The notes under the pieces: model-generated
Told to the model about the DNA's origin: nothing
The model's input: only the letters and a program-made list of their open reading frames with translations
Databases searched by the model: none
Part shown: one piece after another, positions 2,580 through 36,132 of the stretch
Position numbering within the stretch: the first letter of the stretch is position 1
How the letters are laid out: each line of letters opens with the position of its first letter
Translations under genes and position numbers: made by a program
NCBI GenBank assembly: GCA_050012135.1
Contig: JBEKHT010000008.1
Location: 3,773-67,772 of the forward strand
Direction: 5' to 3'
Length of the DNA: 64,000 bases
Source: Anaerolineales bacterium
GTDB taxonomy: Bacteria; Chloroflexota; Anaerolineae; Anaerolineales; RBG-16-64-43

Positions 2580-2582
2580 GCG

Positions 2583-4811: not shown

Positions 4812-4955
4812 CGCAGCTTGCTCGGGCTTCCGGGTTCGACGGGGCACAGTGAGAAAGCACCGGACCGCAGTCCAGAGGTCCAACGGATTCCCACTTTGTG
4901 GTTCCATCTTGGAGCCGGCATGGGGGATTGGACGGCAGGTTGAGGGTCCTCCCTG

Positions 4956-5810: not shown

Positions 5811-5856
5811 CTTTTCCGAACCCTCGTCCACCTCCAGGAATTCGAGGAATAGGGCC

Positions 5857-18255: not shown

Positions 18256-19283
18256 GAGCCACCCACCGGGAGAGGATTCAGGTCGCCCTTTCGGGGCAGA
18301 AGCCTGATGAAATCCCGATCGCCCTTTGGCGGCACTTCCCAGTGGAAGACCAGGATGCGCATGCCCTGGCGGAGGCCACCCTACGATTCCAGCTCGAATT
18401 CGACTTCGACTTGGTGAAGGTGACCCCGTCCTCCAGCTTCAGTGTGCGTGATTGGGGCGTCGAGGACATTTGGGAGGGAGATCCTGAGGGGACTCGAAAG
18501 TATGTCCGGCAGGTGATCGAGAATCCGACGGACTGGTCCAAGCTTCGCCGACTTGACCCTGGCCGCGGCGCGCTGGGACGGCAGTTGATGTGTCTTGGGG
18601 AGGTGAAAGCACGGCTGGGGAGAGAGACCCCCGTACTTCAGACGGTTTTCAATCCCTTGGCTCAGGCCCGGCATCTGGCCGGGGACGCAGTTCTTATCGA
18701 GCACATTCGCCGATGGCCCGAGGCCGTTCTGGAGGGACTGGAGAGGATCACCGCCTCGACGGAGAGATTCGTGACGGCCTGTCTGGAACGATCGGAAGAT
18801 GGGATCTTCTTCGCGGTTCAGCACGCTTCGCGCCGCCTGCTCTCACCGGAAGAGTATCGTCAGTTCGGGCGACCCTTCGATCTTCGGGTCTTAGAAGCCG
18901 CCCAGGGCGGCTGGCTGAATCTCCTGCACCTTCATGGCGATGGAGTCTTGTTTGAGGATCTCTGCGACTACCCGGTCCAGGTGATCAATTGGCACGACCG
19001 CGAGGCAGGCCCATCGCTGAAGGAGGGGCACAAGCTCTCGGGGAAGGTCGTGTGCGGCGGGATGAGACAGTGGACGACGATGGTTTGCGGAGACCCGCAG
19101 CTCGTCTGGGAAGAGGCGGCCGAGGCCGTTCACCAAATGGCGGGCCGCGATCTGATCCTCGGGACCGGTTGTGTCTGCCCGGTTGTGACACCCTGGGTGA
19201 ACCTGCGCGCCGCGGTGGACTACTCCCGAAAGCAAGCGCCTCGTCCGAGGCGACCCGCGCGCCGTGTTTCGATTGCGGCCTAG
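18252..19283 (+). CDS. Uroporphyrinogen decarboxylase (URO-D) family protein, function unassigned
   Basis: RERIQVALSGQKPDEIPIALWRHFP...FDFDLVKVTP matches the N-terminal pattern of URO-D/MtaA-like TIM-barrel proteins. GTG at 18252 is coupled to the upstream stop. Confidence 0.7.
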   Translation: MRATHRERIQVALSGQKPDEIPIALWRHFPVEDQDAHALAEATLRFQLEFDFDLVKVTPSSSFSVRDWGVEDIWEGDPEGTRKYVRQVIENPTDWSKLRRLDPGRGALGRQLMCLGEVKARLGRETPVLQTVFNPLAQARHLAGDAVLIEHIRRWPEAVLEGLERITASTERFVTACLERSEDGIFFAVQHASRRLLSPEEYRQFGRPFDLRVLEAAQGGWLNLLHLHGDGVLFEDLCDYPVQVINWHDREAGPSLKEGHKLSGKVVCGGMRQWTTMVCGDPQLVWEEAAEAVHQMAGRDLILGTGCVCPVVTPWVNLRAAVDYSRKQAPRPRRPARRVSIAA

Positions 19284-20929: not shown

Positions 20930-21245
20930 TGGGCTGCCGATACCGAGCTTGGCCAACCCAGCCAACTCCTGGCCAAGGGGAAGCACGGCTCAGGCCGGGG
21001 GGCGGGCCCTGCCGCCTCTGGCTCGGGGTGCCTGCTGGTGACACGTGGCGGAGCCTGGCGTGATGATGCTCACAGGCCAGGTCGTTCGCGGGCATGATGA
21101 CTTCGCCCGGGAGCCGGCTCCCGACTGAGGCTTAGGTCGGCATGGGCTGGCGAGGGTGCCTCGTCGCCAGCGGGTCGCACCTGCCCGGAGCAGGACCGAG
21201 GCGGTCGATCATCGGGAAAGGCCAGGGGAACGCGAGGAGGATCGT

Positions 21246-22130
21246 GTGACAGCCAAGATCATTGACGGAAAGGTGATCGCGGAGCAGGTCCGGGGGGAGG
21301 TGGCCAATGAGGTAAGACAAATGGTGGCCCAAGGATTGCCTCGGCCTGGTCTGGCGACCGTGTTGGTCGGCGACAACCCGGCTTCGGTAAGCTACGTTCG
21401 CAGCAAGCAAAAAGCGTGCGCGGAGCTGGGCATCGAGTCCTTTGGACACAATCTGCCCGCGAGCACGTCGCAGCAAGAGCTTGAGGATCTGCTGGGCAAG
21501 CTGAATGCCGATTTGAGGGTGAATGGCATCCTGGTCCAGTTGCCCCTGCCTTCCGGGCTTGATGAGGAACGCGCCCTCAGTGTGATCAGCATCAACAAGG
21601 ATGTGGATGGGTTTCATCCCATCAATGTAGGACGTCTAGCCATGAAGCGCAGAGACCCCGTTTTCGTCCCCTGCACGCCGGCGGGAGTGATCGTTCTGTT
21701 GGAACGCTCGGGCGCGAAGTTCTCGGGCGCGCGGGCGGTTGTGCTGGGTCGCTCGAATATTGTCGGAATGCCGGCGGCGCTCCTTCTGGTTCGCGAGAAC
21801 GCGACCGTGACGATCTGTCATTCCAAGACCCTCAACTTGCCCGAGGTGGTCGGTCAGGCTGACATTCTGGTGGCGGCAATCGGCAAGGCTCATTTTGTGC
21901 GCGGCAGTTGGGTCAAGCCGGGGGCCTTTGTGATTGATGTGGGAATCAATCGGGTCGAGGATCCCTCCACCAAAGCGGGCTATCGGCTTGTGGGCGACGT
22001 GGCATTTGACGAAGTCAAGGAGGTAGCGGGTGCGATTTCGCCTGTCCCGGGAGGGGTGGGCCCGATGACGATTGCCATGCTTATGAAGAACACGGCCCGC
22101 GCGGCTCGGCTGGCGGCGGTGAAGGGATAA
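21246..22130 (+). CDS. folD: Bifunctional methylenetetrahydrofolate dehydrogenase/cyclohydrolase
   Basis: AKIIDGKVIA...ATVLVGDNPAS.SYV..K, VDGFHPINVG, VVLGRSNIVGMP, PVPGGVGPMT. GTG at 21246 is preceded by GAGGAGGA. Confidence 0.92.
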   Translation: MTAKIIDGKVIAEQVRGEVANEVRQMVAQGLPRPGLATVLVGDNPASVSYVRSKQKACAELGIESFGHNLPASTSQQELEDLLGKLNADLRVNGILVQLPLPSGLDEERALSVISINKDVDGFHPINVGRLAMKRRDPVFVPCTPAGVIVLLERSGAKFSGARAVVLGRSNIVGMPAALLLVRENATVTICHSKTLNLPEVVGQADILVAAIGKAHFVRGSWVKPGAFVIDVGINRVEDPSTKAGYRLVGDVAFDEVKEVAGAISPVPGGVGPMTIAMLMKNTARAARLAAVKG

Positions 22131-22268: not shown

Positions 22269-23633
22269 ATGACCACTCTTCTGGTACGGCATGCGGATGT
22301 GCTGGTCACGATGGATGACGACCGCCGCGAGATCCGGGATGGCGGGCTGTTCATCCGGGATGGCTGGATTGAAATGGTCGGCGTGTCGGGGGAGCTTCCC
22401 CACGCCGCGGATGAAACCCTCGACCTGAGGGGCCACGTGCTGCTCCCGGGATTGGTGAATGCTCATCATCATCTCTACCAGACCCTTACGCGAGCCCTGC
22501 CCGCGGCGCAAGATGTAGACCTTTTCCACTGGCTGAGAACTCTTTACCCGATCTGGGCTCGACTCACTCCGGAAGCAATCCAAGTCTCAACCCAAGTAGG
22601 CCTAGCAGAGCTCGCGCTGTCGGGCTGCACCACGGCCTGCGACCATCTCTACCTCTTTCCGAATGGGGCACACTTGGACGACGAAATTGAGGCAGCCCTT
22701 CCGGTCGGATTGCGCTTTCATGCCTCCCGAGGCTCGATGAGCCTGGGGGAATCGCAGGGAGGCCTGCCACCCGATCGGGTCGTGGAAAAGGAGGAGGCGA
22801 TTCTGAAGGACACCCAACGCCTCATCGAGGGCTTTCACGACCCTCAGCCGGGCGCCATGTTGAGAATTGTTGTGGCTCCCTGCTCCCCCTTTTCGGTAAC
22901 GGCCGATCTGATGCGAGAGGCGGCCGCGCTCGCGCGCTCGGCCGGGGCCAGGCTGCATACTCACTTGGCGGAGACCTTGGACGAAGAGCGTTTCTGCTTG
23001 GAACGGTTCGGGCGCCGGCCGGTTGACTATGCCGAGGAGTTGTCCTGGTTGGGGGAAGATGTGTGGTTCGCTCACGGGGTGCACGTCAATCGCGAAGAGG
23101 CGGCAAGGCTGGCTCGGTCCGGATCGGGAATAGCCCATTGTCCCTCGTCGAACATGCGCCTGGCCTCGGGGATTGCCCCGGTGGATGAATACCTCCGCTG
23201 CGGCGTAAAGCTGGGCCTGGGGGTGGATGGTTCCGCGAGTAACGACAGCTCCCACCTCCTAGCCGAGGCTCGGCAAGCGATGCTCCTGGCACGCCTGTCG
23301 GTGGCCGTACGGGGTTCCGGCGGACCCTTGCTGAGCGCGCGCCAAGCGCTGGAGTTGGCGACGCGTGGGGGGGCGGAAGTCCTGGGCCGTTCTGACATCG
23401 GCCAGCTGGCGCGAGGGAAGTGCGGGGATTTTGTTGCCTTTCGGCTGGACCGCTTGGACTACGCGGGCGCGCTAGAAGACCCTGTCGCCGCCCTGGTCTT
23501 TTGCTCCCCGTGCCAAGCCGATGTCACGGTGGTTAATGGCCGGTTTGTGGTAAAGGAAGGGCGTCTGACCACCCTTGACTTGCCGATGCTGGTGGAGAGG
23601 CACAATCGAATCGCCAACGCGCTCTTGGGGTAG
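22269..23633 (+). CDS. 8-oxoguanine deaminase-like amidohydrolase (guanine/isocytosine deaminase clade, SsnA-related)
   Basis: LPGLVNAHHHLYQTLTR, LYPIWARLTPE, SGCTT..DH.YLFP, HTHLAETLDEE, HCPSSNMRLASGI, GVDGSASND. Closely colinear with my recollection of Pseudomonas 8-oxoguanine deaminase. Confidence 0.82.
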   Translation: MTTLLVRHADVLVTMDDDRREIRDGGLFIRDGWIEMVGVSGELPHAADETLDLRGHVLLPGLVNAHHHLYQTLTRALPAAQDVDLFHWLRTLYPIWARLTPEAIQVSTQVGLAELALSGCTTACDHLYLFPNGAHLDDEIEAALPVGLRFHASRGSMSLGESQGGLPPDRVVEKEEAILKDTQRLIEGFHDPQPGAMLRIVVAPCSPFSVTADLMREAAALARSAGARLHTHLAETLDEERFCLERFGRRPVDYAEELSWLGEDVWFAHGVHVNREEAARLARSGSGIAHCPSSNMRLASGIAPVDEYLRCGVKLGLGVDGSASNDSSHLLAEARQAMLLARLSVAVRGSGGPLLSARQALELATRGGAEVLGRSDIGQLARGKCGDFVAFRLDRLDYAGALEDPVAALVFCSPCQADVTVVNGRFVVKEGRLTTLDLPMLVERHNRIANALLG

Positions 23634-23654: not shown

Positions 23655-25436
23655 ATGAGAGACGAATTCTCTTCCCGGCGGCTGGTCGATTGCGCGATGG
23701 GAAGGCTGGCGGCGGACCTGTTGATTCATCAAGGCCAGTGGGTGTCGGTCCAATCAGGCGAAATCGTGCCAGGCACAGACGTCGCCGTTCTGGGTGCCCG
23801 CATTGCCTATGTCGGTCCGGACGCAAGCCACTGCATCGGACCCAACACGCAGCTGATCGAGGCCCGAGGGCGGTTTCTTGTTCCCGGGTTGATTGAGGGT
23901 CATGTCCACGTCGAATCGGGAATGGTCACCATCAGCGAGTTCGTGAATGCCGTGCTGCCCCACGGCACCACCGCGATGATGATTGACCCTCACGAGATTG
24001 CCAACGTCTTTGGACTGCAAGGCGTGCGCACGATGGTGGACGAGGCTGCCGTCCAGCCCATTCACGTATGGGTCCAGATGCCTTCCTGCGTGCCTTCCGC
24101 TCCTGGGATGGAAACGCCGGGGGCCAACATCGGGCCCGCTGAAGTCGCGGAGGCCATGACTTGGCCAGGCATCATCGGTCTGGGGGAGGTCATGAACTTC
24201 CCGGCGGTTGTGGATGGGGACGAGAAGATCCATGCCGAGATGGACGCGGCACGGCATGCGGGCAAGGTGATTGGGGGCCATTACCCCTCCCCGGATCTGT
24301 CTCTGCCGTTCCACGGCTATGCCGCCGGGGGGCCCGAGGATGACCACGAGGGGACTCGCGCGGAGGATGCCGTCGCCCGGGTCCGACAGGGAATGCGTGC
24401 GATGCTGCGGTATGGGTCGGCCTGGCATGATGTGGAGGCCCAGGTCAAGGTCATCACCGAGCAGAATCTGGATCCTCGGCACTTTCTTCTGGTCACAGAC
24501 GACGCTCACGCGGGCACCCTGGTGGGTGAGGGCCACATGGATCGGGTAGTTCGGCATGCTGTGAAATGTGGTCTGGCCCCCCTGGTCGCCCTCCAGATGG
24601 CGACCCTGAACGCCGCAGAGCACTTCGGCGTCAGCCATGAGATCGGCCAAATTGCCCCCGGGCGGTATGCCGACATCCTCCTGGTGGGAGATCTGGAAGC
24701 GATGGATGTGCAACTCGTTATTGTGGGAGGCGTTCGGGCGGCCGAGGAGGGCAAGATGCTCCTTCCGCCGTCCGGGTTCCGATATCCTTCAAAGTATCGG
24801 CGCTCGGTTCATCTCATTCGCAATCTGGTGCCGGAGGATTTTGCTGTCCGATCGCGGGCGAAGGCTGTCACGGAAGCTCATGTGATCGGCGTCATTGAGA
24901 ATCAGGCACCCACGCGACACCTGCGCTTGCCGCTCCGGGTTCAGGAGGGTCTGGTTCAGATCCGCCCAGATGGCGAGGTCGCCAAGGTGGGCTTGGTCGA
25001 GCGCCATCTTCGGACGGGCAGAATCCAAGTTGGATTCGTGCACGGCTTTGGCTTCAACGTGCCCTGTGCGGTGGCTTCGACCGTGGCGCATGATTGCCAC
25101 CACTTGCTGGTCGTCGGCACGGATGACTCGCAGATGGCCATGGCGGGCAATGCCCTTGCCAAGCTCGGTGGCGGAATCCTGGTAGTCCGAGAGGGCAAGG
25201 TGCGGGCCGCGGTGGAACTCCCGATCGCAGGGCTCATGTCAGAGGAGCCCGCGGGCGATGTCGCCCACAAGATGTCGGCCGTTCTGGAAGAGTTTCGGGC
25301 CTGTGGTTGCCGGATGGCCAATGCGAACATGCAGCTCAGTCTCCTGGCCTTGGTCGTGATCCCCGAACTGCGCATCTCCGATCTGGGCCTGGTGGATGTG
25401 GAACGGTTTGAATTCGTCCCCGCGGTGGAAGGTTAG
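23655..25436 (+). CDS. ade: Adenine deaminase
   Basis: 593 aa. VPGLIEGHVHVESGM, TTAMMIDPHEIANV, and a two-domain length typical of Ade. Confidence 0.87.
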   Translation: MRDEFSSRRLVDCAMGRLAADLLIHQGQWVSVQSGEIVPGTDVAVLGARIAYVGPDASHCIGPNTQLIEARGRFLVPGLIEGHVHVESGMVTISEFVNAVLPHGTTAMMIDPHEIANVFGLQGVRTMVDEAAVQPIHVWVQMPSCVPSAPGMETPGANIGPAEVAEAMTWPGIIGLGEVMNFPAVVDGDEKIHAEMDAARHAGKVIGGHYPSPDLSLPFHGYAAGGPEDDHEGTRAEDAVARVRQGMRAMLRYGSAWHDVEAQVKVITEQNLDPRHFLLVTDDAHAGTLVGEGHMDRVVRHAVKCGLAPLVALQMATLNAAEHFGVSHEIGQIAPGRYADILLVGDLEAMDVQLVIVGGVRAAEEGKMLLPPSGFRYPSKYRRSVHLIRNLVPEDFAVRSRAKAVTEAHVIGVIENQAPTRHLRLPLRVQEGLVQIRPDGEVAKVGLVERHLRTGRIQVGFVHGFGFNVPCAVASTVAHDCHHLLVVGTDDSQMAMAGNALAKLGGGILVVREGKVRAAVELPIAGLMSEEPAGDVAHKMSAVLEEFRACGCRMANANMQLSLLALVVIPELRISDLGLVDVERFEFVPAVEG

Positions 25437-25478: not shown

Positions 25479-26215
25479 CAAAACAAGAAGAGGTTCGGGC
25501 CGATCCCCGACCTCTCTGCGCGGGCTGGAAAGCGATTGCCGGGCGAGCCGGACCTGGCTAGGCAGATGGGCGTCAGTCGCGCGACCCTGCGCGGGGCCAT
25601 GCGCGCATTGGCTCAGAAGGGGGGAATTATTCGTCGCCTAGGAGTTGGAACGTTCGTCGTTGCCAAGCGCGCGTTCTTGGACGATGGGCGGGAGGTCCGG
25701 GAGAGCCCGCCAAGCATCGCGCGGCGAAATGGGCTCACGCCAGTCATGGGGAATCACCGCTTGGAGGAACGGGGTGCGACCGCCCGCGGGGCAAGGCACT
25801 TGGGCCGGAGCTAGGGTCCGCGGTTCTGGTGGCCTCCCGAACCATGCTGGTCGAAGGGAGCCCTGTGGCCTTTCTGGTAGACGTGGTGCCGGCCGCGCAC
25901 CTCAGCGGCTGCGACTTCCGTTCCTTCTGCGGCTCAGGCTTGGACCTGCCGGTTGGGCGCGGGGATCCCGGACTTGCTTATTTGGGGACGCGGCTTGGGG
26001 CAGAGCTGAGCGCGGGTGAGATTCGGCGCCGACTCAAGCGGCGGGAGCCGCATGCGCTGCTCAGGCTGGAGGCCGAACTGTTCAGTCTGGAGGACGAGGT
26101 AGTGGACGATTCGGCGAGTCACTTTGTCCCGGAATCCTTCCACTTCCACAACAACCGACGGGTCAATGCGATTCCGGCGGCCGCATGGGAAAGGACTACC
26201 GGCCTGGCGGGCTAA
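25479..26215 (+). pseudogene. GntR/HutC-family regulator (wHTH plus UTRA) disrupted by a frameshift and lacking a clean start
   Basis: Frame 0 encodes RLPGEPDLARQMGVSRATLRGAMRALAQKGGIIRRLGVGTFVV (GntR HTH) and stops at 25812-25814. The UTRA-like remainder (...LGPELGSAVLVASRTMLVEGSPVAFLVDVV...) continues in another frame to 26215. The switch lies near 25780-25800, next to a G-run. The only upstream ATG (25475) is out of frame. Confidence 0.6.
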
Positions 26216-26303: not shown

Positions 26304-27257
26304 ATGCGCAGTTTTCTGGGACGCGACATCCTTTCGCTGAAGGATTTCGAGCGGGAGGAATTCTTCCGGGTATTCCAAGTTGCCAAAGAGTTGGAGCCCA
26401 TTGCTCGGGACCGTAGGAACAGCGACATGCTGCGTCATAAGATCCTGGTCACGGCGTTCTACCAGCCCAGCACACGCACGCGGTTGGCTCACGAGGCAGC
26501 GATGCACCGTCTGGGAGGCCATGTGACCGGCTTCGCGGACGCTAAGATGACGCGGGCTGGGGACTTCTACCAGGAGTCTATCAAAGACACGGTTAAGATG
26601 CTGGAGTTCTATGGGGACGTCATCGTCATGCGCCACTTTCAACAGGGAGCTCCTCACGAAGCGGCCCGCTGGGCATCGATTCCGGTCATCAACGGCGGAG
26701 ACGGCTGGGGCGAACATCCGACCCAAATCCTGACGGATCTATATACCGTCCTGCAAGAAAAGGGCCGAATCGACGGGCTGAACTGGCTGGCGGTGGGCGA
26801 CATGCGAATGCGCACCATGCACTCGTTGGCGTATGCTCTGACCCAGTTTGATTGCCCCATCACTTTCGTGGCTCCGGCGGAGATGACTCTCACCCCAGAG
26901 TTCAAGGACGAGCTGGAGAAGTACAGCCTCAACTTTTCGGAGGCGGACCACGTCGAGAAGGTGATCGGCAAGGCGGACGTGATCCTGGTAGAGCCCGTGG
27001 TCCAACCGGACTACACCAAATCGCGAGACGAGCGCACCGGAAGCGTGGGCCTGACCCCCGGTAATTACAAGATCACGCGGGAGTTGCTGTCCTCGAAAGC
27101 CAAATCGGATGCCATCCTCCTGCATTCCCTTCCGCGCATGGACGAGATCCCAACCGACGTGGACATCACTCGGTGGTCCCGCTACTGGCAGGAGGCTTTC
27201 AACGGGGTGGTGATGCGCATGGCTCTGCTCGCTCTGATCTTGGGTGCGGTCGAATAG
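26304..27257 (+). CDS. ATCase-like carbamoyltransferase with divergent second-substrate motifs
   Basis: Colinear with E. coli PyrB as recalled: FYQPSTRTRLAHE, VMRH, GEHPTQILTDL, GDMRMRTMHSL, LHSLPRMDEIPTDVD. However, the KK of the 80s loop is replaced (TRAGDFYQE) and TRVQKER is replaced by EPVVQPD. AGGAGGA RBS. Confidence 0.85.
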   Translation: MRSFLGRDILSLKDFEREEFFRVFQVAKELEPIARDRRNSDMLRHKILVTAFYQPSTRTRLAHEAAMHRLGGHVTGFADAKMTRAGDFYQESIKDTVKMLEFYGDVIVMRHFQQGAPHEAARWASIPVINGGDGWGEHPTQILTDLYTVLQEKGRIDGLNWLAVGDMRMRTMHSLAYALTQFDCPITFVAPAEMTLTPEFKDELEKYSLNFSEADHVEKVIGKADVILVEPVVQPDYTKSRDERTGSVGLTPGNYKITRELLSSKAKSDAILLHSLPRMDEIPTDVDITRWSRYWQEAFNGVVMRMALLALILGAVE

Positions 27258-27376
27258 AACCGGGAAACCAAGGCGGGCTGGGCGGCCGGGGTCGCGTCAA
27301 CCCCCGGGGGCCGGCGGGTCCCATGGCTGGAGGCGGGCCGCGTGGGGGCTTTGCAGGTAGTCCTGGAGAGGATGCA

Positions 27377-28354
27377 ATGCAGACACACCTGAAGGGGCGC
27401 GATCTGATCAGTGATCTGGATTTCAGCCGGGAAGAGGTCGAAACCGTGCTGGATGTGGCCTTCGACCTCAAGCGCAAACGGGCGCTGGGCGAACCTCATC
27501 CCATCTTGCGCGACAAGGTCCTGGCGATGCTTTTCTTCTTCAGCAGCACGCGCACACGCGGGTCCTTCGAAGCGGGGATGGCTCAACTGGGGGGGCACGC
27601 AGCCTTCATCGAGAGCCGGACGACCCAGATCGCGCATGGCGACACCCCCAAGGAGATTGGTGAGATTTTTGGGCGATATTTCGATGGCATTGCCATCCGG
27701 CACGTGGACTGGGGTGTCGGGAACGGATATCTCAGAGAGGTCGCCCGCGCCTCCCGAGTCCCGGTGCTGAACATGCAGTGTGACATCTACCATCCGTTCC
27801 AGATTCTGGCGGATCTGATGACGATCGTGGAGAAGAAGGGTCGGGACCTGCGCCACAAGAAGATGGTGGTTTCTTGGGCCTATGCGGCCTCGTATCAGAA
27901 GCCGATGTCGGTTCCTCAATCGCTCATCCTGCAGATGCCGCGCTTCGGATTGGACGTGGTCCTGGCACACCCGCCGGAGTTCCGCTTGATGCCGGAGATC
28001 GTCAGCCAGGCCAGGGAACAGGCCAAGGAATTCGGGGCTGGTTTTGAAGTCGTGGACGACATGGAAGCGGCTTTCCGGGATGCGGACATCATCTACGCCA
28101 AGTCCTGGGGGGCATTGGTCCACACGCCCGACCCGGATGAGGGTGCTAGAATCATTCAGAAGTACCCGCATTGGATCACCGACGAGAGGAAGATGGCCCT
28201 CGCCAAAAAGGATGCCATCTACATGCACCCCCTGCCGGCCGACCGCAACATCGAAGTCACCGACGGCGTGATGGACGGACCGCATTCGGTCGTCTATGAT
28301 GAGGCCGAGAATCGCTTGCACGCCCAGAAGGCGGTCATGGCTCTGACGATGTAG
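27377..28354 (+). CDS. Knotted-type carbamoyltransferase (AOTCase/SOTCase/YgeW clade), substrate unassigned
   Basis: FFFSSTRTR, YHPFQILADL, DIIYAKSWGAL, ITDERKMAL, MHPLPADRN, DEAENRLHAQKAVMA. These match my recollection of Xanthomonas N-acetylornithine transcarbamylase and its relatives. ATG at 27377 follows GGAGAGGA; the track ORF start at 27173 is spurious. Confidence 0.85.
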   Translation: MQTHLKGRDLISDLDFSREEVETVLDVAFDLKRKRALGEPHPILRDKVLAMLFFFSSTRTRGSFEAGMAQLGGHAAFIESRTTQIAHGDTPKEIGEIFGRYFDGIAIRHVDWGVGNGYLREVARASRVPVLNMQCDIYHPFQILADLMTIVEKKGRDLRHKKMVVSWAYAASYQKPMSVPQSLILQMPRFGLDVVLAHPPEFRLMPEIVSQAREQAKEFGAGFEVVDDMEAAFRDADIIYAKSWGALVHTPDPDEGARIIQKYPHWITDERKMALAKKDAIYMHPLPADRNIEVTDGVMDGPHSVVYDEAENRLHAQKAVMALTM

Positions 28355-28360
28355 GAGAGA

Positions 28361-29329
28361 GTGTCGATGAGCGGGCCAAGCAAGAAAGTCGCCGTCGTTG
28401 CCATTGGCGGCAACTCGCTGATCCGGGACCCGAAACGCGTCTCGGTGGAAGACCAGGAGGATGCGTTGCGGGAGACCGCTCGCCATATTGTCGACATGGT
28501 CGCGGCCGGATGGGACGTGGCCATTGGGCATGGCAATGGACCTCAGGTCGGCTTCATCCTGCGGCGCTCGGAGATTGCGGCCAAGGCCGAGGGGATGCAC
28601 GAGGTTCCGCTGGACGTGTGCGGGGCCGACAGCCAAGGGGCGATCGGGTACGAATTCCAGCAGGCGCTGCAAAACGAACTCTTTCGTTGCGGCATCAAGA
28701 AGAACGTGTGCACCGTGATCACCCAAACCCTGGTGGATAAGGACGACCCGGCCTTCCAGAATCCGAGCAAACCTATCGGCAGCTTCATGGAGGAAGACGA
28801 GGCGAGGCGTCGTGAGAGAGAAATGGGCTGGAGTGTGGTTGAGGATGCCGGGCGGGGCTGGAGGCGCGTGGTAGCCTCCCCGTTGCCCAAGGAGATCGTC
28901 GAGCTGGATTCGGTCCGGACGCTGATCCACGCGGGCGTTCTGGTCATCACGGTGGGGGGCGGCGGTATCCCGGTCATTGATGCGGGCGGCGGCCAATATC
29001 GTGGCACGGCCGCTGTCATTGACAAGGACTTCGGCTGCAGTCTGCTCGCGCGCGAAATCAAGGCGGACCTTTTCCTGATCGCTACGGCCGTCGAGAGAGT
29101 CGCCCTCCATTTCGGGCAGCCCGACCAGAAATGGCTTGAGCGGATGACTTTGGCCGAGGCCAAACGGTATCTGGCCGAAGGGATACACTTTGCCAAAGGC
29201 TCCATGGCCCCCAAGATCCAGGCGATCATCTGGTACTTGGAAGCCGGTGGCAAACAGGCGCTGATCACCAACCCGGAGAATATCGGCCGGGCCTTGGATG
29301 GGAAGACGGGCACATGGATCGTGCCCTGA
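28361..29329 (+). CDS. arcC: Carbamate kinase
   Basis: KVAVVAIGGNSL, GHGNGPQVG, DKDF, MAPKI motifs. About 320 aa. Confidence 0.9.
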   Translation: MSMSGPSKKVAVVAIGGNSLIRDPKRVSVEDQEDALRETARHIVDMVAAGWDVAIGHGNGPQVGFILRRSEIAAKAEGMHEVPLDVCGADSQGAIGYEFQQALQNELFRCGIKKNVCTVITQTLVDKDDPAFQNPSKPIGSFMEEDEARRREREMGWSVVEDAGRGWRRVVASPLPKEIVELDSVRTLIHAGVLVITVGGGGIPVIDAGGGQYRGTAAVIDKDFGCSLLAREIKADLFLIATAVERVALHFGQPDQKWLERMTLAEAKRYLAEGIHFAKGSMAPKIQAIIWYLEAGGKQALITNPENIGRALDGKTGTWIVP

Positions 29330-29480: not shown

Positions 29481-30836
29481 ATGAACGTGATCCGTAAAGC
29501 GCTCAAGTACATCGCCTTACCGGGCATGGCACTCGTGTTCGTGCTGACGGCCTGCGGACCTGCTGCCACGCCGACCGCCGCTCCCGCCCCAGCGGCCACC
29601 TCGGCGCCCGCCGTGGTCCCGACTTCGGCGCCGACCGTGGCACCCACCGCCGCTGCCACAGCAGCTGCAACGGTTGCTGCTGCGGCCGCGCCGACCGCGA
29701 CTTTGGCTCCTGTGGGAACTGCATTCCCATCTGGCCAGATGTTCACCATCGGTATGATTCTGGTTGGTCCCTACAATGACTCGGGTTGGAGCCAGGCTAC
29801 CTACGAAGGTGGCGAGTATGCAATTGCTAATGTTCCCAATACCAAGCTGATCTATATCGACAACGGCTTCAGCCATCAGGGCTCGACACCGGCCCAGCTG
29901 GCCGAGCAGCTGCTGGCGAAGGGTGCCAACATGATCATCTTCAACTCGGATGATTTCAAGGATGAGTCCAATACCTTCGCCAAGAACCATCCGACCATCC
30001 CGACCATCATGCTTTCGGGCGATCAGTCCTGGGCGCAGGGTCAGGCGTATCTGATCCTCCCCAACATGGCCAACATCATGGGCAAGATGGAGTACATGAA
30101 GATGCTCGCGGGATGCGCGGCCGCCATGACCACCCAGACCGGCAAGATCGGCTACCTGGGTCCGCTGATCAACGACGAAACCCGCCGCCTGTCCTCTTCC
30201 GCCTACCTGGGCGCCAAATACTGCTGGACCAATGTCCTGAAGAAGGATCCGTCGGCGCTGCAATTCCAGGTGACCTGGATCGGATACTGGTTCAACGAAC
30301 CTGGCACGACGCTGGATCCGACCAAGGTCGCGGATGCCTTCTTTAACACCGGCTTTGATGTGGTCATGTCGGGCATTGACACTTCCGAGGCGGTGGTCGA
30401 GGCGAAGAAGATGACCGGGGCCGGCGAGAAGGTCTATGCCGTTGGCTATGACTACAAAGGCAACTGCAGCGCAGGTCCGTCGGTCTGCCTGGGCGTTCCC
30501 TATTTCAACTGGGGCCCGGGGATCGCGGCCGAGGTCAAGAAGGCGATGGCGGGCACTTTCACCCAGGACTGGCAGTGGTTGGGCCCGGACTGGACGAACA
30601 TCAATAATCCGGATACCAGCAATGTCGGCTTCGTGAAGGGCCAGGCTCTCAGCCCGGCTGCCTCTGCTGCGGTCGATCAGCTGACCGCTGCCCTGGCGGG
30701 CGGCCTGGATCTTTGGACCGGCCCGTTGAGCCTGCAGGATGGGACCCAGTACCTGGGATCTGGCGTGGCCGCCACCCCGCAGCAGCTCTGGTACCTGCCG
30801 CAACTGCTCCTGGGCATGGCCGGCAGCAGCAAGTAA
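29481..30836 (+). CDS. BMP-family (PnrA/Med-like) ABC transporter substrate-binding lipoprotein
   Basis: Lipobox VLTAC followed by a long Ala/Pro/Thr linker. IGMILVGPYNDSGWSQATYEGG is typical of basic-membrane-protein nucleoside-binding proteins. Confidence 0.87.
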   Translation: MNVIRKALKYIALPGMALVFVLTACGPAATPTAAPAPAATSAPAVVPTSAPTVAPTAAATAAATVAAAAAPTATLAPVGTAFPSGQMFTIGMILVGPYNDSGWSQATYEGGEYAIANVPNTKLIYIDNGFSHQGSTPAQLAEQLLAKGANMIIFNSDDFKDESNTFAKNHPTIPTIMLSGDQSWAQGQAYLILPNMANIMGKMEYMKMLAGCAAAMTTQTGKIGYLGPLINDETRRLSSSAYLGAKYCWTNVLKKDPSALQFQVTWIGYWFNEPGTTLDPTKVADAFFNTGFDVVMSGIDTSEAVVEAKKMTGAGEKVYAVGYDYKGNCSAGPSVCLGVPYFNWGPGIAAEVKKAMAGTFTQDWQWLGPDWTNINNPDTSNVGFVKGQALSPAASAAVDQLTAALAGGLDLWTGPLSLQDGTQYLGSGVAATPQQLWYLPQLLLGMAGSSK

Positions 30837-30854
30837 CCATTCCTGATACTGATG

Positions 30855-30884
30855 ATTGGGGGAAGGCAGGCGCCTTCCCCCAAT
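30855..30884 (+). terminator. GC-rich hairpin downstream of the substrate-binding-protein gene (possible attenuator or partial terminator)
   Basis: ATTGGGGGAAGGC (30855-30867), a 4-nt loop, then GCCTTCCCCCAAT (30872-30884): a perfect 13-bp stem. The weak T-tract (TCTTAA) keeps confidence limited. Confidence 0.4.
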
Positions 30885-31111
30885 TCTTAAGCACCTGACA
30901 CAGGGGTGCAATCGTTTGTCCGGAAGGGATGCCGATCGTGAGGTAGGATAAATGCAGCAGTTCTGAGCCGAAGCCGGTATACCAAGGGCGCAAGAGGGCT
31001 GGAGCTTGAGAGGCAGTCGTCACACAAGTAAAAGGTTCTCGCCTCCCGCTCGCGAAGAGATCCAGGGACCCCTCCAAATGAACCAACAGTTCGCCATTCA
31101 GGGAAAGAACC

Positions 31112-32623
31112 ATGAACGTTGAACTCAAGGACATCCATAAGACATTCGGTGCGGTGCATGCCAACGCGGGCATCAGCATGGACATCCCGGGAGGGACGAT
31201 CCAGGGCATCCTCGGGGAGAACGGTGCGGGCAAGAGCACCCTGATGAAGATCTTATCCGGATTTATTCGGGCGGACCAGGGCGAAATCCTGCTCGACGGC
31301 CACCCGGTTTCCATTCATTCACCTGCCGATGCCATTCGGAATGGGGTGGGCATGCTCCACCAGGATCCGCTGGATTTCCCCCCGTTACGCGTCATCGATA
31401 ATTTCATCCTGGGCCGATCCGGCGGCCTGCTGCCCGGAGAGGGCGCAGCCCTGCAGGACTTCAAGAAGCTGGCCGGACAGTTCGGCTTCTCCTTGGACCC
31501 GCAGGCTTACGTGGATTCGCTGACCGTCGGGGAACGCCAGCAGCTGGAGATCCTGCGTTTGATCTGGCTGGGCGCCCGGGTGCTGATCTTTGACGAACCC
31601 ACCACCGGCATCAGCGCGCAGCAGAAAGTGAAACTCTTCGCAGCCCTGCGCCTGCTGGCCAAGCAGGGCATGACTGTGTTGTTCGTCTCACACAAGCTGG
31701 AGGACGTCGAAGGGCTGTGCGACAGCGTGGTGGTCCTGCGCCAGGGATACCTGGTTGGCAGCGTCAAACCCCCTTACGACACCCACCAGCTGGTTGAGAT
31801 GATGTTCGGCAAGGAGGTCACGTTGGGGGCGCGCAGCGCTGGTTGCGCGGGTGAGGTGGCCTTTTCCCTGCGCAACCTAGCTGTTGAGGATTACCGCCTG
31901 CACATTGGCGAGATCAACCTCGACATTTGCCACGGCGAGGTAATCGGCCTGGCCGGCATGGAAGGGAGCGGCCAGGCGCTTTTTCTGCGGGCGGTTGCTG
32001 GCCTGGTGCGGACGGTCGGCGGGCAGATCCTGCGGGGCGACCGGGATTTAACCGGCCGCAACTATCATTTCTACAAGCGGGGCGGGGTGGCGTTCTTACC
32101 CGCCTCCCGCCTGGAGGAAGGTTTGGTGGCTGGACTGAACCTGACCGAGCATGTCATTCTGGCGGAAGAGGCCACAGGTTTTTCCATTAATTGGGAAAAG
32201 GGCCGCCAGCTGGCGCAGAGCCGCATCACGGAATTCAATATTCATGGTACGCCGGTCAACACCGTCGAATCGCTGTCGGGGGGTAACCAGCAGCGGACCT
32301 TGCTGGCCCTGATGCGGGTCCCGCTCGATCTGATGCTACTGGAACACCCGACGCGCGGGCTGGACATCGAGTCTACCATTTATATCTGGAATAAGCTCAA
32401 GGAACGCTGCCAGCAGGGAACGTCGATCCTGTTTGTTTCTTCTGACCTGGATGAGATCCTGCAGTACAGTGATCGGGTGCTGGTCTTCTTCAGCGGCCGG
32501 GTGACGCCTCCATTGGATGTCTCGACATTAACTACGGAGAAACTCGGCGAGTTGATCGGCGGTATGGGCTGGCCGGAATCAAAGAACGAGGCAAGCGTCC
32601 ATGAAAGAAAACCAGTGGCTTAA
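31112..32623 (+). CDS. ABC transporter ATP-binding protein (tandem ATPase domains, sugar/nucleoside type)
   Basis: GENGAGKST Walker A, LSGGNQQR and LTVGERQQ signatures, two NBDs in 503 aa. Confidence 0.9.
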   Translation: MNVELKDIHKTFGAVHANAGISMDIPGGTIQGILGENGAGKSTLMKILSGFIRADQGEILLDGHPVSIHSPADAIRNGVGMLHQDPLDFPPLRVIDNFILGRSGGLLPGEGAALQDFKKLAGQFGFSLDPQAYVDSLTVGERQQLEILRLIWLGARVLIFDEPTTGISAQQKVKLFAALRLLAKQGMTVLFVSHKLEDVEGLCDSVVVLRQGYLVGSVKPPYDTHQLVEMMFGKEVTLGARSAGCAGEVAFSLRNLAVEDYRLHIGEINLDICHGEVIGLAGMEGSGQALFLRAVAGLVRTVGGQILRGDRDLTGRNYHFYKRGGVAFLPASRLEEGLVAGLNLTEHVILAEEATGFSINWEKGRQLAQSRITEFNIHGTPVNTVESLSGGNQQRTLLALMRVPLDLMLLEHPTRGLDIESTIYIWNKLKERCQQGTSILFVSSDLDEILQYSDRVLVFFSGRVTPPLDVSTLTTEKLGELIGGMGWPESKNEASVHERKPVA

Positions 32624-33638
32624 GATCGGTTTTCAACTGGCAGCGATCGTCCTGGCGCTGCTCTTTACTACCCTGGTCCTGTTGATGGCCGGCGCGTCGC
32701 CGCTGCAGGCCTACCTGAATGTGCTTGAGGGCATTTTCAGTTCCACCGCAGACATCACCAATGTCCTGGCCGCCTGGATTCCCCTGCTGCTGACCACCTC
32801 CGGTGTGCTGATCACCTTCGCGGCCGGCCTGTGGAATATCGGCATCGAGGGGCAGATCATGCTCGGAGCGGTCTTCACGACAGGAGCGCTGCGCCTGCTG
32901 GAGAACAGTTCGCTGGTCGGAGGATGGATCATCCTGCTCGGTTTTCTGGCGGGCCTGCTGGGCGGAGCCTTATGGGGGGCGCTGGCAGGCGTGCTGAAGA
33001 CCTTCGGCGGGGTCAATGAGATTTTTGGCGGGCTGGGGTTGAATTTTGTGGCCACCGCCTTCGCGCTCTACCTGATCATTGGCCCGTGGGGGCGGCCGGG
33101 AATTGCCTCGACAAGTGGGACCCTGCTCTTTCCGACCAGGCTCTGGTTGCCAACCCCGACCAACGTGGCACTCAGCCCCTGGGCATTGGTGGTGGGCATC
33201 CTGTCGGCCGTGCTGGTCTATTTCCTGTTGCGTGGAACCTACTTCGGTCTGCGCCTGAAAGCGGTGGGCAAGAACATGCGGGCAGCCTTTCTGCTGGGGG
33301 TCCCGACCTGGCAGTACAGCATGTACGCGTTCCTGCTGTGCGGCGCCTTCGCCGGCCTGGCGGGCGCGGTTCAGGTCACCGCTGTCTATCACCGCCTCAT
33401 TCCGACCATTTCAAGTGGGTATGGCTTCCTGGGCTTGTTGGTGGCCATGCTGATCAACTACCAGGCGATCTGGGCTGCACCCATTGCCCTGTTCTACGCA
33501 GCTTTGAACATTGGCGGCATTCAGCTGCCGATCGTGATGAAAATGGACTCATCCCTTTCGGGCGTACTGCAGGGGATCCTCGTCCTGTTCGTTTTGATGG
33601 TCGAGGGCGCCCGCCAGCGACTGTTTGAGAAACGATAG
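32601..33638 (+). CDS. ABC transporter permease (BMP/sugar-type)
   Basis: Multi-TM protein of 345 aa. Its start overlaps the ATPase gene. Confidence 0.85.
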   Translation: MKENQWLKIGFQLAAIVLALLFTTLVLLMAGASPLQAYLNVLEGIFSSTADITNVLAAWIPLLLTTSGVLITFAAGLWNIGIEGQIMLGAVFTTGALRLLENSSLVGGWIILLGFLAGLLGGALWGALAGVLKTFGGVNEIFGGLGLNFVATAFALYLIIGPWGRPGIASTSGTLLFPTRLWLPTPTNVALSPWALVVGILSAVLVYFLLRGTYFGLRLKAVGKNMRAAFLLGVPTWQYSMYAFLLCGAFAGLAGAVQVTAVYHRLIPTISSGYGFLGLLVAMLINYQAIWAAPIALFYAALNIGGIQLPIVMKMDSSLSGVLQGILVLFVLMVEGARQRLFEKR

Positions 33639-33647
33639 GTAGGGACT

Positions 33648-34646
33648 ATGACTTCCATAGGTCTTCTGATTAGTCTGGCAGGAATCCTGTACGGTGCGGC
33701 CCCGATCATGTTCGGAGTGATCGGCGAGACGATCACCGAACGGGCTGGCATCATCAACCTCTCCATGAACGGGACCATCCTGCTCTCGGCCATGGTCGGC
33801 TTTGCCGTAGCGTACGGGACCGGCAGCCTCCTCCTTGGCTTCCTGGCCGGCGCATTGATTGGCGGCCTTGTAGCGCTGGTCGTCGCATTCAGCAGCATCG
33901 CCCTCAAGCAGTCCCAGGTGGCGGTGGGCTTCGTGCTGGCCGTGCTCTGCCTTAATCTTTCGTATTTCCTCGGTCATGCGTATATCAGCAAGAACGGTCC
34001 AAGCATGAACATCCTCCCCATCGCAGGGCTGGACAAGATCCCCATTCTGGGAACGTTATTCTTTAGACAGGATTTGATGACCTACTTCAGTTTTGTGATC
34101 ATCTTCCTGACCTGGTTTTGGATCTACCGGACCCGCCCGGGGTTGATGCTGCGCGGGATCGGGGAACGCCCGGCCGCGGCCTATGTGCGCGGGGCGGATG
34201 TTAACCGCCTGCGCTACATCTATACCTTCCTGGGTGGGGCGATCGCAGGATTGGCGGGCCCGACCTTTTCCCTGGATGTTAAAGCCGGGTGGGCGGGACA
34301 GCTTTCCGGTCTGGATGGCTACGGCTGGATCGTCCTTTCGATCACCATCTTCGGCGGCTGGAATCCATTCCGAGCGGCCTTCGGAGTGTACCTGTTCTCC
34401 TTCCTGCAGTGGCTCGGCCTCGTGCTGCAGCCTGTCTTGCCCAACATCCCGACCCAGGTGCTGCAGGTGGCACCTTTCCCGCTCATGATCCTGACCCTGC
34501 TGCTGGTCAACATTGGGAATGCCGAATGGATCAATCGCATGATGGCCACCTTGCCTGAAGGGACCCGGCGGCTGGTAGCCCGCCTTTTGCGGGCTTTGCG
34601 CGCCTCGCCGCCGGCCTCGCTGGGCGTTCCCTTCGACAGCGAATGA
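33648..34646 (+). CDS. ABC transporter permease (BMP/sugar-type)
   Basis: Multi-TM protein of 332 aa, 9 nt after the previous permease. Confidence 0.85.
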   Translation: MTSIGLLISLAGILYGAAPIMFGVIGETITERAGIINLSMNGTILLSAMVGFAVAYGTGSLLLGFLAGALIGGLVALVVAFSSIALKQSQVAVGFVLAVLCLNLSYFLGHAYISKNGPSMNILPIAGLDKIPILGTLFFRQDLMTYFSFVIIFLTWFWIYRTRPGLMLRGIGERPAAAYVRGADVNRLRYIYTFLGGAIAGLAGPTFSLDVKAGWAGQLSGLDGYGWIVLSITIFGGWNPFRAAFGVYLFSFLQWLGLVLQPVLPNIPTQVLQVAPFPLMILTLLLVNIGNAEWINRMMATLPEGTRRLVARLLRALRASPPASLGVPFDSE

Positions 34647-34878
34647 CGGATGACCGGACTGCCCGTGTCCGGCTGGCCGAAGAACCCAACAAGCCGTGAA
34701 TAGAGACCCTGCCGGTTGAGGCCAATGCAGTGCGCGTTCGGCCGAGGGCGGCTTTGTGCGCTCGCAGCGTCTTTTTCCTGGAAGTGCGGGTCGCCGATCT
34801 TGGGCCCCGCAGGCGCGGCGGAGACCCGGCCTGGCCACGACAAGTGCTCGTGACCATTCCGGTGAAAAGAGGAAACGC

Positions 34879-36132
34879 ATGAACTTCCTGGGTTACCGCT
34901 GTTCGAGATGCTCGCGGGAGTACTCGCCGGGAGAAGCAACCTACCTCTGTCCCGCCGATGGCGGGAACCTCGATGTGGTACTCGACTACGATAAGCTGCG
35001 GACCGGGGTCGATCCACGCGAGCTTGAAACCTCGCCCCAGCGGTCTTTGTGGAGGTACCAGAGGTTGCTCCCCGTGGAAAACCTGGGCGAAGAGCGCACG
35101 CCCATGGGGGCGGTCGGCTGGACTCCCGTCTACGATGAGCCGGCCCTTGCCAGAGAACTTGGCCTTGGCCAATTGTGGCTGAAGGATGAAGGCCGCAACC
35201 CGACGGGCTCTCTCAAAGACAGGGCCAGCGCGGTCGTGCTCGCTCGCGCGAAAGAGATTGCGGCCAAGGTAGTCGTCACGGCCTCAACCGGGAACGCGGG
35301 TGCGGCCCTGGCCGGGTTAGCCGCTGCCTGCGGCCAACGGGCTGTTATCTTTGCACCAAGGGGTGCGCCCCCGGCCAAGGTCGCGCAGCTTCTGATCTAC
35401 GGGGCCACCGTCTTGCTGGTGGAGGGGAATTACGACCAGGCCTTTGACCTCTCCATTGAGACAGCCAACGAATTTGGATGGTATTGCCGCAACACGGGGT
35501 ATAACCCTTTCACCGTGGAGGGGAAGAAGACCGCCGCCTATGAAATCTGGGAACAAGTCCTGGAGGCAGGAGCCTCGCCAAAGAGCGGCCTTCCGGTCCC
35601 GGCGGTTGTTGTGTCGGTTGGAGATGGAAATATCATCTCCGGTCTCTACAAGGGGTTCCAGGATCTGCAGGCTCTCGGCTGGCTGGACCGAGTTCCGCGA
35701 CTGTTCGGGGTTCAGGCGGAGGGCTCTGCCGCCATCGCCAATGCCTGGCGGCAGGGGAGCGAGCGGATCGTGCCCGTCGCGGCCAGGACCTTGGCGGACA
35801 GCATTTCGGTGGATCTTCCTCGCGATGGCGTGCGCGCCGTGCGGGCCGTGTCGCAGTCGGGAGGAGCTTGCCTGACGGTGAGCGATGCGGACATCCTGGG
35901 GGCTATGGCTGACCTCGGGCGGGTTGGCGTGTTTGCGGAGCCGGCCGCAGCCGCCGCCCATGCCGGTCTCAAACAAGCCGTTCGCGAGGGCAGGCTGGGA
36001 CGCGAGGACCGCGTGCTGGTGATCATCACCGGAAGCGGCCTCAAGGACGTCCGGGCTGCCTCTCAAGCGGTCGGGAAGGCGAAGGTCATCGAGCCCAGGC
36101 TCAAGGCGGTGAAAGTGGCACTGGGGCTGTGA
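34879..36132 (+). CDS. Threonine synthase-like fold-type-II PLP enzyme with N-terminal (partly degenerate) zinc-ribbon
   Basis: YRCSRCS...YLCPADGGNLDV, then NPTGSLKDRAS (PLP-Lys motif) and TASTGNAGAA. ATG at 34879; the track ORF start at 34756 is an Arg-rich extension. Confidence 0.8.
   Translation: MNFLGYRCSRCSREYSPGEATYLCPADGGNLDVVLDYDKLRTGVDPRELETSPQRSLWRYQRLLPVENLGEERTPMGAVGWTPVYDEPALARELGLGQLWLKDEGRNPTGSLKDRASAVVLARAKEIAAKVVVTASTGNAGAALAGLAAACGQRAVIFAPRGAPPAKVAQLLIYGATVLLVEGNYDQAFDLSIETANEFGWYCRNTGYNPFTVEGKKTAAYEIWEQVLEAGASPKSGLPVPAVVVSVGDGNIISGLYKGFQDLQALGWLDRVPRLFGVQAEGSAAIANAWRQGSERIVPVAARTLADSISVDLPRDGVRAVRAVSQSGGACLTVSDADILGAMADLGRVGVFAEPAAAAAHAGLKQAVREGRLGREDRVLVIITGSGLKDVRAASQAVGKAKVIEPRLKAVKVALGL

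Follow-up and report, generated by a model that had tools for sequence, protein, structure and literature searches.

A tandem of ATCase-lineage and YgeW-like carbamoyltransferases in Anaerolineae, a candidate end module of reductive urate breakdown

Closest described systems and the Anaerolineales locus

In the purine-catabolic gene cluster of Escherichia coli, the transferase YgeW is encoded immediately upstream of the carbamate kinase YqeA. Work from 2025 established that YgeW phosphorolyses 2,3-diureidopropionate (DUPA) as part of the reductive (2,8-dioxopurine) urate pathway (bioRxiv 10.1101/2025.04.24.650524; PMC12507026). YqeA turns the resulting carbamoyl phosphate into ATP, and the two enzymes together make ATP from DUPA in vitro; Li et al. 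describe DUPA phosphorolysis as thermodynamically unfavourable. The SsnA neighbourhoods of Chloroflexota contain a luciferase-family, presumably F420-dependent, reductase in place of YgfK (PMC12507026, a study in which any PF00185 protein was counted as 'YgeW'). Here we describe a 64-kb stretch of DNA from an Anaerolineales bacterium (contig JBEKHT010000008.1, 62% GC; hereafter the window), in which two carbamoyltransferase genes, CT1 (gene 1, 26304-27257) and CT2 (gene 2, 27377-28354), precede a carbamate kinase gene (28361-29329) on the same, forward strand. We propose, with moderate confidence, that the three gene products would form the energy-conserving end module of a Chloroflexota version of the reductive urate pathway.

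The second group of relatives comprises the pseudo-ATCases, paralogues within the aspartate carbamoyltransferase (ATCase) branch that have intact carbamoyl-phosphate motifs, an altered HxLP motif, and no RxQ (Barba et al. 2013, PMC4016543). Subgroup 1, from Rubrobacter, was assayed and is an allantoate-cleaving ureidoglycine carbamoyltransferase (UGTCase) encoded ahead of carbamate kinase; subgroup 2, from Nocardioides JS614, adjoins a ygeW homologue, xdhABC, and hyuA; and subgroup 3 carries HSLP and VxP (PMC4016543). The motifs given for subgroups 2 and 3 are GX[SC] or VXP, and their reference members come from Nocardioides JS614 and Rhodopirellula (RB13301). The literature searched contained nothing more recent on these two subgroups.

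The Anaerolineales locus resembles the YgeW-YqeA arrangement in that CT2, a transferase of the YgeW branch, which includes the acetylornithine carbamoyltransferases (AOTCases), is encoded immediately upstream of carbamate kinase in a purine-catabolic setting, and related loci add YgeY, SsnA-like, HyuA-like, and xanthine dehydrogenase (XDH) genes. It differs in that CT2 has 325 residues whereas YgeW has 396, and in that CT2 is joined by a second carbamoyltransferase, of ATCase lineage. Furthermore, a ThrC-like and a CysK-like pyridoxal phosphate (PLP) enzyme replace YgeX, and an F420-type reductase replaces YgfK in related loci. CT1 has the features of the pseudo-ATCase class: it is closest to the Pyrococcus abyssi ATCase, its STRT and HPTQ motifs are intact, it carries H[ST]LP, and RxQ is lost. 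Its context fits that published for subgroup 2, with ygeW, xdhABC, and hyuA neighbours. The HSLP of CT1 also occurs in subgroup 3, whose VXP is matched by the VQP of CT1 only with a two-residue alignment shift. Subgroup 3 was described from marine bacteria, where its gene neighbours encode a Na+ symporter and an asparaginase and not YgeW or carbamate kinase.

The gene pair was followed in a scan of one genome per species, which yielded more than 575 close CT1 relatives; the best 80 (85-90% identity) were kept as loci, individual ones of which are cited below by handles such as L004. The loci are mostly from Anaerolineae, including metagenome-assembled genomes (MAGs) assigned to Anaerolinea thermophila and Caldilinea aerophila. 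Rxyl_2847, the UGTCase of Rubrobacter, is ATCase-derived and acts ahead of carbamate kinase on a diureido acid, from which it takes one ureido group by phosphorolysis, and its cleavage of allantoate offers a mechanistic precedent for the role that CT1 may have. CT1 could itself be a UGTCase acting on allantoate in an oxidative purine pathway, as its membership of the same broad pseudo-ATCase group, the carbamate kinase that follows it, and its purine-catabolic setting would allow. We regard this as improbable. The subgroup-1 motifs are HPLA and AIA, AIS, or SIA, whereas CT1 has HSLP and PVV/VQP, and the uricase and allantoinase that mark the oxidative context of UGTCase, like 5-hydroxyisourate (HIU) hydrolase and 2-oxo-4-hydroxy-4-carboxy-5-ureidoimidazoline (OHCU) decarboxylase, were not seen in the window or the surveyed loci.

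Substrate-binding residues of CT1 and CT2

CT1 has 317 residues and contains the PF02729 and PF00185 domains. Alignments to the ATCases of P. abyssi and E. coli, from which its residues were assigned, bear out what an earlier sequence-only reading of the locus had stated: CT1 keeps the carbamoyl-phosphate motifs STRTR, VMRH (with R105), and HPTQ, as well as R167 (in MRTMH), and its last motif is HSLPR, so that P266 is replaced by serine. The lysine pair of the 80s loop and the segment around R229 are both replaced, as had also been claimed. The 80s loop changes from N-T-S-L-G-K-K-G-E to M-T-R-A-G-D-F-Y-Q-E, with the loss of K83 and K84, a one-residue insertion, and a new arginine at position 80. 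The segment T-R-V-Q-K-E-R becomes E-P-V-V-Q-P-D, with the loss of R229 and Q231 and thereby of the RxQxER motif of the 240s loop. In ATCase, R167 clamps the alpha-carboxylate of aspartate, and R229, Q231, and K84 hold the beta-carboxylate, K84 being contributed by the 80s loop of the adjacent subunit. The replacements at both aspartate-binding segments of CT1 are invariant in the 80 orthologues and so are not sequencing noise. Residues S52-T55, R105, H134, Q137, and R167 and the HxLPR motif are likewise invariant, and R84, D87, and D236 are new invariant residues.

The model of CT1 calculated using AlphaFold2 has a pLDDT (predicted local distance difference test) score of 91.6, lower values being confined to the 80s and 240s loops, and its best match in the PDB is the ATCase structure 1ml4, with a template-modelling (TM) score of 0.88. 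In a rough neighbour-joining distance tree without support values, CT1 falls among the sequences lacking RxQ and not in the clade of canonical ATCases. The matches among 1.8 billion searched cluster representatives comprised a tight CT1 group of just two full-length representatives (70-75% identity), a second group of diverse ATCase-like proteins (35-50% identity) that have a TR(A/S)GD-type 80s loop and lack RxQxER, and a third group of canonical ATCases. From these sequence features we classify CT1 as an ATCase-lineage pseudo-ATCase and not a conventional ATCase.

CT2 also contains PF02729 and PF00185. The motifs AKSWGAL, DERKMAL, and DEAENRLHAQKA, quoted in the sequence-only reading, are present, and the replacement of HCLP by HPLP is real and conserved. 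The same reading had taken the absence of about a dozen residues of the AOTCase specificity loop as a sign of altered specificity. The gap exists, since 9+3 residues of the 80s loop of Xanthomonas AOTCase are missing, but it is the ordinary state of this loop and no peculiarity of CT2, because YgeW and ornithine carbamoyltransferases (OTCases) lack these residues too. CT2 does not reach the cut-offs of the OTCase model NF001986 (258.9 vs 306), the AOTCase model NF003384 (253.4 vs 288), or a further OTCase/AOTCase model (250.3 vs 280.85), and with no DxxxSMG motif it lies outside both families.

The resemblance of CT2 to YgeW is found in the residues that would contact the second substrate. Despite an identity to E. 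coli YgeW of just 36%, CT2 retains five of the six second-substrate residues proposed for YgeW in the review of Shi et al. (PMC4581275), namely Q160, S200, K203, K270, and L331, whereas the sixth, D124, is replaced by valine. CT2 and YgeW have in common the TQIAHGDT 80s loop, QCDIxHPxQ, the proline-rich loop WAYxxSYxKPxSVPQ, and YAKSWG, none of which is shared by AOTCases or OTCases; the sequence of the proline-rich (knot) loop in CT2, WAYAASYQKPMSVPQ, is YgeW-like. Compared with YgeW, CT2 is missing the extension at the N-terminus, three insertions within the chain, and the tail at the C-terminus, and it has an OTCase-like end. The YgeW models TIGR03316 and NF005538 align to residues 3-246 only, with scores of 182.7 (cut-off 500) and 195.2 (cut-off 453), respectively. 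The AlphaFold2 model of CT2, calculated from 30 close homologues, has a pLDDT of 51.5. CT2 is probably a minimal YgeW-type enzyme that lies outside the curated YgeW family and works like YgeW, and we propose that it is the functional equivalent of YgeW, a candidate DUPA carbamoyltransferase.

CT1 and CT2 are 30% identical to each other (E = 1e-30) and belong to one superfamily. The two enzymes had been called mutually unrelated in the sequence-only reading; their sequences instead place them as distant paralogues, one in each of the superfamily's two main branches.

Public records of identical or nearly identical proteins from Anaerolineales MAGs uniformly label CT1 as ATCase, probably because it is accepted by the curated ATCase model TIGR00670 (256.8 vs a cut-off of 236.95), and gene 2 is named OTCase. 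TIGR00670 also accepts the Actinoplanes homologue of CT1 (246 bits), which likewise lacks the aspartate-binding motif, whereas CT1 scores 223.6 against NF002032, below the cut-off of 263. The labels, together with the passed model and the ATCase fold of CT1, would speak for gene 1 being pyrB and gene 2 encoding an ornithine or acetylornithine carbamoyltransferase. We consider this very unlikely indeed, since RxQxER and K84 are lost in every orthologue of CT1, and CT2 misses all OTCase and AOTCase cut-offs and has neither DxxxSMG nor HCLP. Moreover, no pyr or arg neighbours were present in any of the 80 surveyed loci, whereas the catabolic partners are constant. None were found among the large open reading frames of the window either, which agrees with the sequence-only reading.

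Gene neighbourhoods in the window and related genomes

The CT1-CT2-kinase module is kept in most of the related loci. Among the loci from related species with enough downstream sequence, 61 of 68 have a CT2 orthologue and 53 of 65 a carbamate kinase. The usual gene order is FolD (not always present), 8-oxoguanine deaminase, adenine deaminase, GntR regulator, YgeY (in some loci), CT1, CT2, and carbamate kinase, followed by an ABC importer (in some loci), a ThrC-like PLP enzyme, and sometimes a CysK-like PLP enzyme. The median identity across loci is 86% for CT1 and 80.5% for CT2, compared with 73% for the kinase, 63-66% for the deaminases, and 62% for the PLP enzyme. A tight constraint on structure, the formation of a complex, or a recent spread could account for the high conservation of CT1 and CT2.

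The strict co-occurrence of CT1 and CT2, and their conservation relative to that of their neighbours (62-73%), would also fit a CT1 without a catalytic role of its own, either as a structural or regulatory partner of CT2, for instance within a mixed complex, or as a redundant paralogue that acts on the same bond with opposite stereochemistry; the loss of the canonical second-substrate residues points the same way. This explanation is unlikely, because the carbamoyl-phosphate-binding and catalytic residues of CT1 are all invariant, CT1-family genes occur without CT2 in actinomycete biosynthetic clusters, and CT1 pairs equally with YgeW proper in L003.

Three observations tie the CT1-CT2 pair to the reductive urate pathway. 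First, a gene for the YgeY hydrolase (TIGR03526, 470 bits vs a cut-off of 321) is located directly upstream of CT1 in 29 loci. Second, L004 holds together XDH, both PLP enzymes, a luciferase-type oxidoreductase, YgeY, CT1, CT2, and the kinase, and further contains SsnA-like (36% identical to E. coli SsnA), XDH, HyuA-like (40%), and YgfM-like genes; subsets of this gene set occur in L055, L019, and L040. Third, in L003, which has no CT2, a gene for YgeW proper (8144-9313; 65% identical to the E. coli protein) adjoins CT1. The L003 contig, which is labelled Verrucomicrobiia, also carries SsnA-like and XDH genes. CT1 genes on contigs labelled Verrucomicrobiia, Eisenbacteria, or Zixibacteria are 87-89% identical to those of Anaerolineae, which may be due to mis-binning or lateral transfer.

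CT1, CT2, the kinase, and the two PLP enzymes recur in L087 (an Acidimicrobiia MAG, and thus not from Chloroflexota), L088, and L090. The core is preceded in L087 by an XDH fragment, an amidohydrolase gene, and a luciferase-type gene, and F420 genes are located near it in L090. In L088, a gene for a 23S-rRNA-intervening-sequence protein (bAvd-like; L088:9393-9773) is inserted between CT1 and CT2. The two PLP enzymes are constant partners of the module: a ThrC-like protein of about 420 residues with a zinc ribbon, often encoded directly after the kinase, and a CysK-like protein of about 488 residues with long extensions. Examples are located at 34756-36132 in the window and at L002:12917-14455, L055:11961-14744, and L087:5542-8328. 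Neither of the two is a YgeX orthologue.

The CT1 signature, consisting of TRAGD[FY]YQES, GWGEHPTQ, DxR-MRTM, EPV[VI]QPDY, and HSLPR, is also present in Actinoplanes (74% identity), Acidimicrobiia, a MAG labelled Zixibacteria, and Streptomyces (44-47%). In Streptomyces griseoflavus and Actinoplanes, CT1-family genes (L083:10001-10996 and L085:102-1085) are part of clusters of the non-ribosomal peptide synthetase type that contain no CT2, and they adjoin genes for SbnA and SbnB, both of which score above the equivalog cut-offs. SbnA and SbnB form a two-enzyme synthase of L-2,3-diaminopropionate, which is the carbon backbone of DUPA. The Actinoplanes cluster additionally encodes a ThrC-like PLP enzyme that is 42% identical to the one in the window. 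CT1-family genes thus occur in both catabolic and biosynthetic contexts, which points to diaminopropionate or a derivative of it as the second substrate.

The described diaminopropionate carbamoyltransferases (DPTCases) of viomycin and zwittermicin biosynthesis carbamoylate 2,3-diaminopropionate from a SbnA/SbnB-type pair (PMC4581275). They carry HDLP and (T/S)RWQTTG motifs and are of the OTCase branch, which sets them apart from the CT1 family with its HSLPR and EPVVQPDY motifs and its place in the ATCase branch. The actinomycete genes imply an ATCase-lineage enzyme that would form carbamoyl-diaminopropionate and is distinct from the OTCase-branch DPTCases. More generally, we tentatively suggest, at somewhat below an even balance of confidence, that CT1 represents a new activity, that of an ATCase-lineage carbamoyltransferase for the alpha-amino or alpha-ureido group of 2,3-diaminopropionate derivatives. 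It would act catabolically beside a YgeW-type enzyme in Anaerolineae, Acidimicrobiia, and their relatives, and would run anabolically in actinomycetes to supply carbamoyl-diaminopropionate for non-ribosomal peptides.

In the window, CT1, CT2, and the kinase gene are part of one co-directional gene row at approximately 21.1-36.1 kb, all of it on the forward strand. CT1 starts with an ATG that has AGGAGG 8 nt upstream, and the ATG of CT2 is preceded by GGAGAGG. The reading frame of the kinase begins 6 nt 3' of CT2, in agreement with the claim of the sequence-only reading that the two genes precede carbamate kinase. The assignment of the kinase is supported by the curated equivalog model TIGR00746 (378.1 vs a cut-off of 358.25) and by NF009007 (407 vs 266); the protein is 49% identical to E. 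coli YqeA. Translation of the kinase probably begins at the ATG at 28367, which follows GGAGAG by 8 nt.

The row begins with FolD (21156-22130), followed by genes for an 8-oxoguanine deaminase-type amidohydrolase (22269-23633; NF006055, 687 bits vs a cut-off of 532), the product of which would be urate, and an adenine deaminase (23655-25436; TIGR01178, 472.7 vs 472.5; PF13382, 186 bits). The former is present upstream of CT1 in 42-44 of the 80 loci and the latter in 39. Two other assignments of these genes were considered and rejected. The 8-oxoguanine deaminase is not a disguised SsnA, as it is 24% identical to E. coli SsnA compared with 35-36% for the SsnA-like proteins of L003, L004, and L055. 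FolD, which is located upstream in 13-14 loci, raised the clostridial xanthinase (Rabinowitz) pathway, which we rejected as the principal explanation: in L090, FolD stands among housekeeping genes (gyrB, guanylate kinase), and the ureido substrate of that pathway would need the beta-carboxylate-binding residues that CT1 has lost.

Between the deaminases and CT1, a GntR/UTRA regulator gene (25515-26215; PF00392 on 25536-25814) is broken over two frames. A tblastn comparison with intact orthologues of about 240 residues shows a match that runs in frame 2 and then in frame 1, with the shift at approximately 25770-25830. An intact regulator is present in 52 of the 80 loci, and the split is due either to an artefact of assembly or to true inactivation of the gene, in which case the operon might be derepressed. 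Downstream of the kinase, a BMP/PnrA-type ABC importer (29481-34646) consists of a binding protein (29481-30836; PF02608) and, according to open reading frame translations, an ATPase (31112-32623) and two permeases (32601-33638 and 33648-34646). Its cargo is probably purine nucleosides, and its genes are kept downstream of the kinase in approximately 30 loci. The ThrC-like PLP enzyme with an N-terminal zinc ribbon (34756-36132; PF00291, 253 bits) ends the row. It scores below the cut-off of NF006050 (268 vs 303) and probably starts at the ATG at 34879, since its orthologues have 416-436 residues.

Twenty kilobases upstream, Pfam matches delimit a region encoding an XDH-type molybdoenzyme (181-7194, forward strand), with an FAD/2Fe-2S fusion protein (256-1725), a molybdenum subunit (2583-4811), and a YqeC-MocA maturation fusion (5587-7194). 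The XDH-type proteins are 29-30% identical to E. coli XdhA and XdhD, and could constitute a urate or xanthine redox enzyme of the pathway. Accessory genes of the same YqeC and MocA types belong to the ygf/yqe urate cluster of E. coli. A gene of the URO-D/MtaA-like methyltransferase family (18222-19283), which adjoins one for a LysM protein, is also located upstream of the operon and is not conserved in the related loci. A search of the window against Rfam gave no match, the folding of the CT1-CT2 spacer is not unusual (z = +0.88), and a scan for promoters and terminators returned background levels only.

A proposed role in the reductive urate pathway

The arrangement of the operon suggests the following scheme. 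Purines would enter through the ABC importer, and the deaminases of the operon would convert 8-oxoguanine to urate and adenine to hypoxanthine. Urate would then be reduced and its rings opened to give DUPA. The enzymes for this must be encoded elsewhere in the genome, because the window contains no SsnA, HyuA, YgeY, or luciferase-type reductase gene; they would be of the XDH, F420/luciferase-type reductase, SsnA-like, and HyuA-like kinds. CT2, as a trimmed equivalent of YgeW, would phosphorolyse one ureido group of DUPA, probably the 3-ureido group, and CT1 would phosphorolyse the 2-(alpha)-ureido group of DUPA or of 2-ureido-3-aminopropionate. Carbamate kinase would convert the two carbamoyl phosphates and ADP to two ATP, CO2, and NH3. 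The ThrC-like PLP enzyme, in the place of YgeX, would take diaminopropionate or a ureido-alanine to pyruvate and ammonia. Where YgeY is present, it may offer a hydrolytic, irreversible alternative.

We assign the alpha-ureido group to CT1 because R167 is kept, while K84, R229, and Q231 are lost, and the newly gained R84, D87, and D236 suit an aminomethyl or ureidomethyl side chain. The 3-ureido group is assigned to CT2 because the OTCase/YgeW branch acts on side-chain ureido groups. That the two enzymes each remove one ureido group from DUPA, yielding two carbamoyl phosphates and two ATP, is a proposal to which we give about as much credence as doubt. The sequence-only reading had suggested the phosphorolysis of one or two ureido compounds of unknown identity and had considered the substrate of YgeW unresolved. 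Phosphorolysis remains the best reading of the catabolic setting, whereas the identity of the compounds is narrowed by the loci that tie the gene pair to the urate pathway, and the substrate of YgeW is the DUPA established in 2025.

Several points weigh against this scheme. The two 2025 studies conflict over which ureido group is removed by YgeW, the one at position 2 or the one at position 3, and a commentary lists this question as open. The division of labour between CT1 and CT2 is therefore inferred, and so are the carbamoyl-diaminopropionate substrate of CT1, the YgeW reaction of CT2, and the ATP yield. For the published pathway intermediates an R (D) configuration was proposed, whereas the substrate of ATCases is L-aspartate. 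CT2 scores far under the cut-offs of the YgeW profiles, with valine at D124 and HPLP for HCLP. SsnA-like or HyuA-like genes are located within 10 kb in just 3 of the 80 loci, and the window has none of the DUPA-forming genes named above. Loci with YgeY, such as L004, have three ureido-cleaving candidates for two ureido groups, so CT1 is not a simple replacement of YgeY everywhere. Finally, the two conserved PLP enzymes stay unexplained by the scheme.

The gaps in the window, YgeY, the PLP enzymes, and the D-configuration are the reason why one alternative remains a serious rival, although we consider it clearly the less probable. In this alternative, Chloroflexota and Actinomycetota would have a different, as yet undescribed purine pathway that depends on F420, and CT1 and CT2 would phosphorolyse ureido intermediates of it other than DUPA or its mono-ureido products. 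Both amidohydrolases and both PLP enzymes would have roles specific to that pathway. The alternative is favoured by the fact that most loci pair the module not with SsnA and HyuA but with deaminase-type amidohydrolases and PLP enzymes that are absent from E. coli, by the F420 genes nearby, by an adenine deaminase score right at the cut-off, and by the low identity of CT2 to YgeW. However, YgeY, SsnA-like, and HyuA-like genes co-locate in several loci, YgeW proper takes the place of CT2 in L003, the score against the 8-oxoguanine deaminase model greatly exceeds the cut-off, and the CT1 family is linked to the synthases of the very diaminopropionate from which DUPA is built. We therefore prefer the assignment of the module to the end of the reductive urate pathway.

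The module is not categorically new: earlier publications describe the pseudo-ATCase class, one adjacency of a pseudo-ATCase gene to ygeW, and both the pathway and the reaction of YgeW. What is new is the scale and constancy of the two-transferase arrangement, its proposed placement in the urate pathway, and the link of the CT1 family to diaminopropionate, which together allow a specific function, open to testing, to be proposed for an enzyme class that had none assigned. Whatever the model, since CT1 still passes one curated ATCase profile, it is almost certain that hundreds of genes labelled ATCase or OTCase in Chloroflexota and Actinomycetota are misnamed. It was only in 2025, and in gut bacteria, that the reductive urate pathway was elucidated, and its medical interest concerns gout and hyperuricaemia; the locus described here would represent a widespread environmental version, with CT1 relatives in the genomes of more than 575 species, mostly Anaerolineae, in which the YgeW-type enzyme is always joined by a second carbamoyltransferase from another lineage. 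If each of the two enzymes takes one ureido group, the pathway would yield two ATP per urate, compared with one in E. coli. The pseudo-ATCase class would gain its second assigned function, and the split between an ATCase-type and a YgeW-type enzyme would provide a clean experimental handle on the dispute over the regiochemistry of YgeW.

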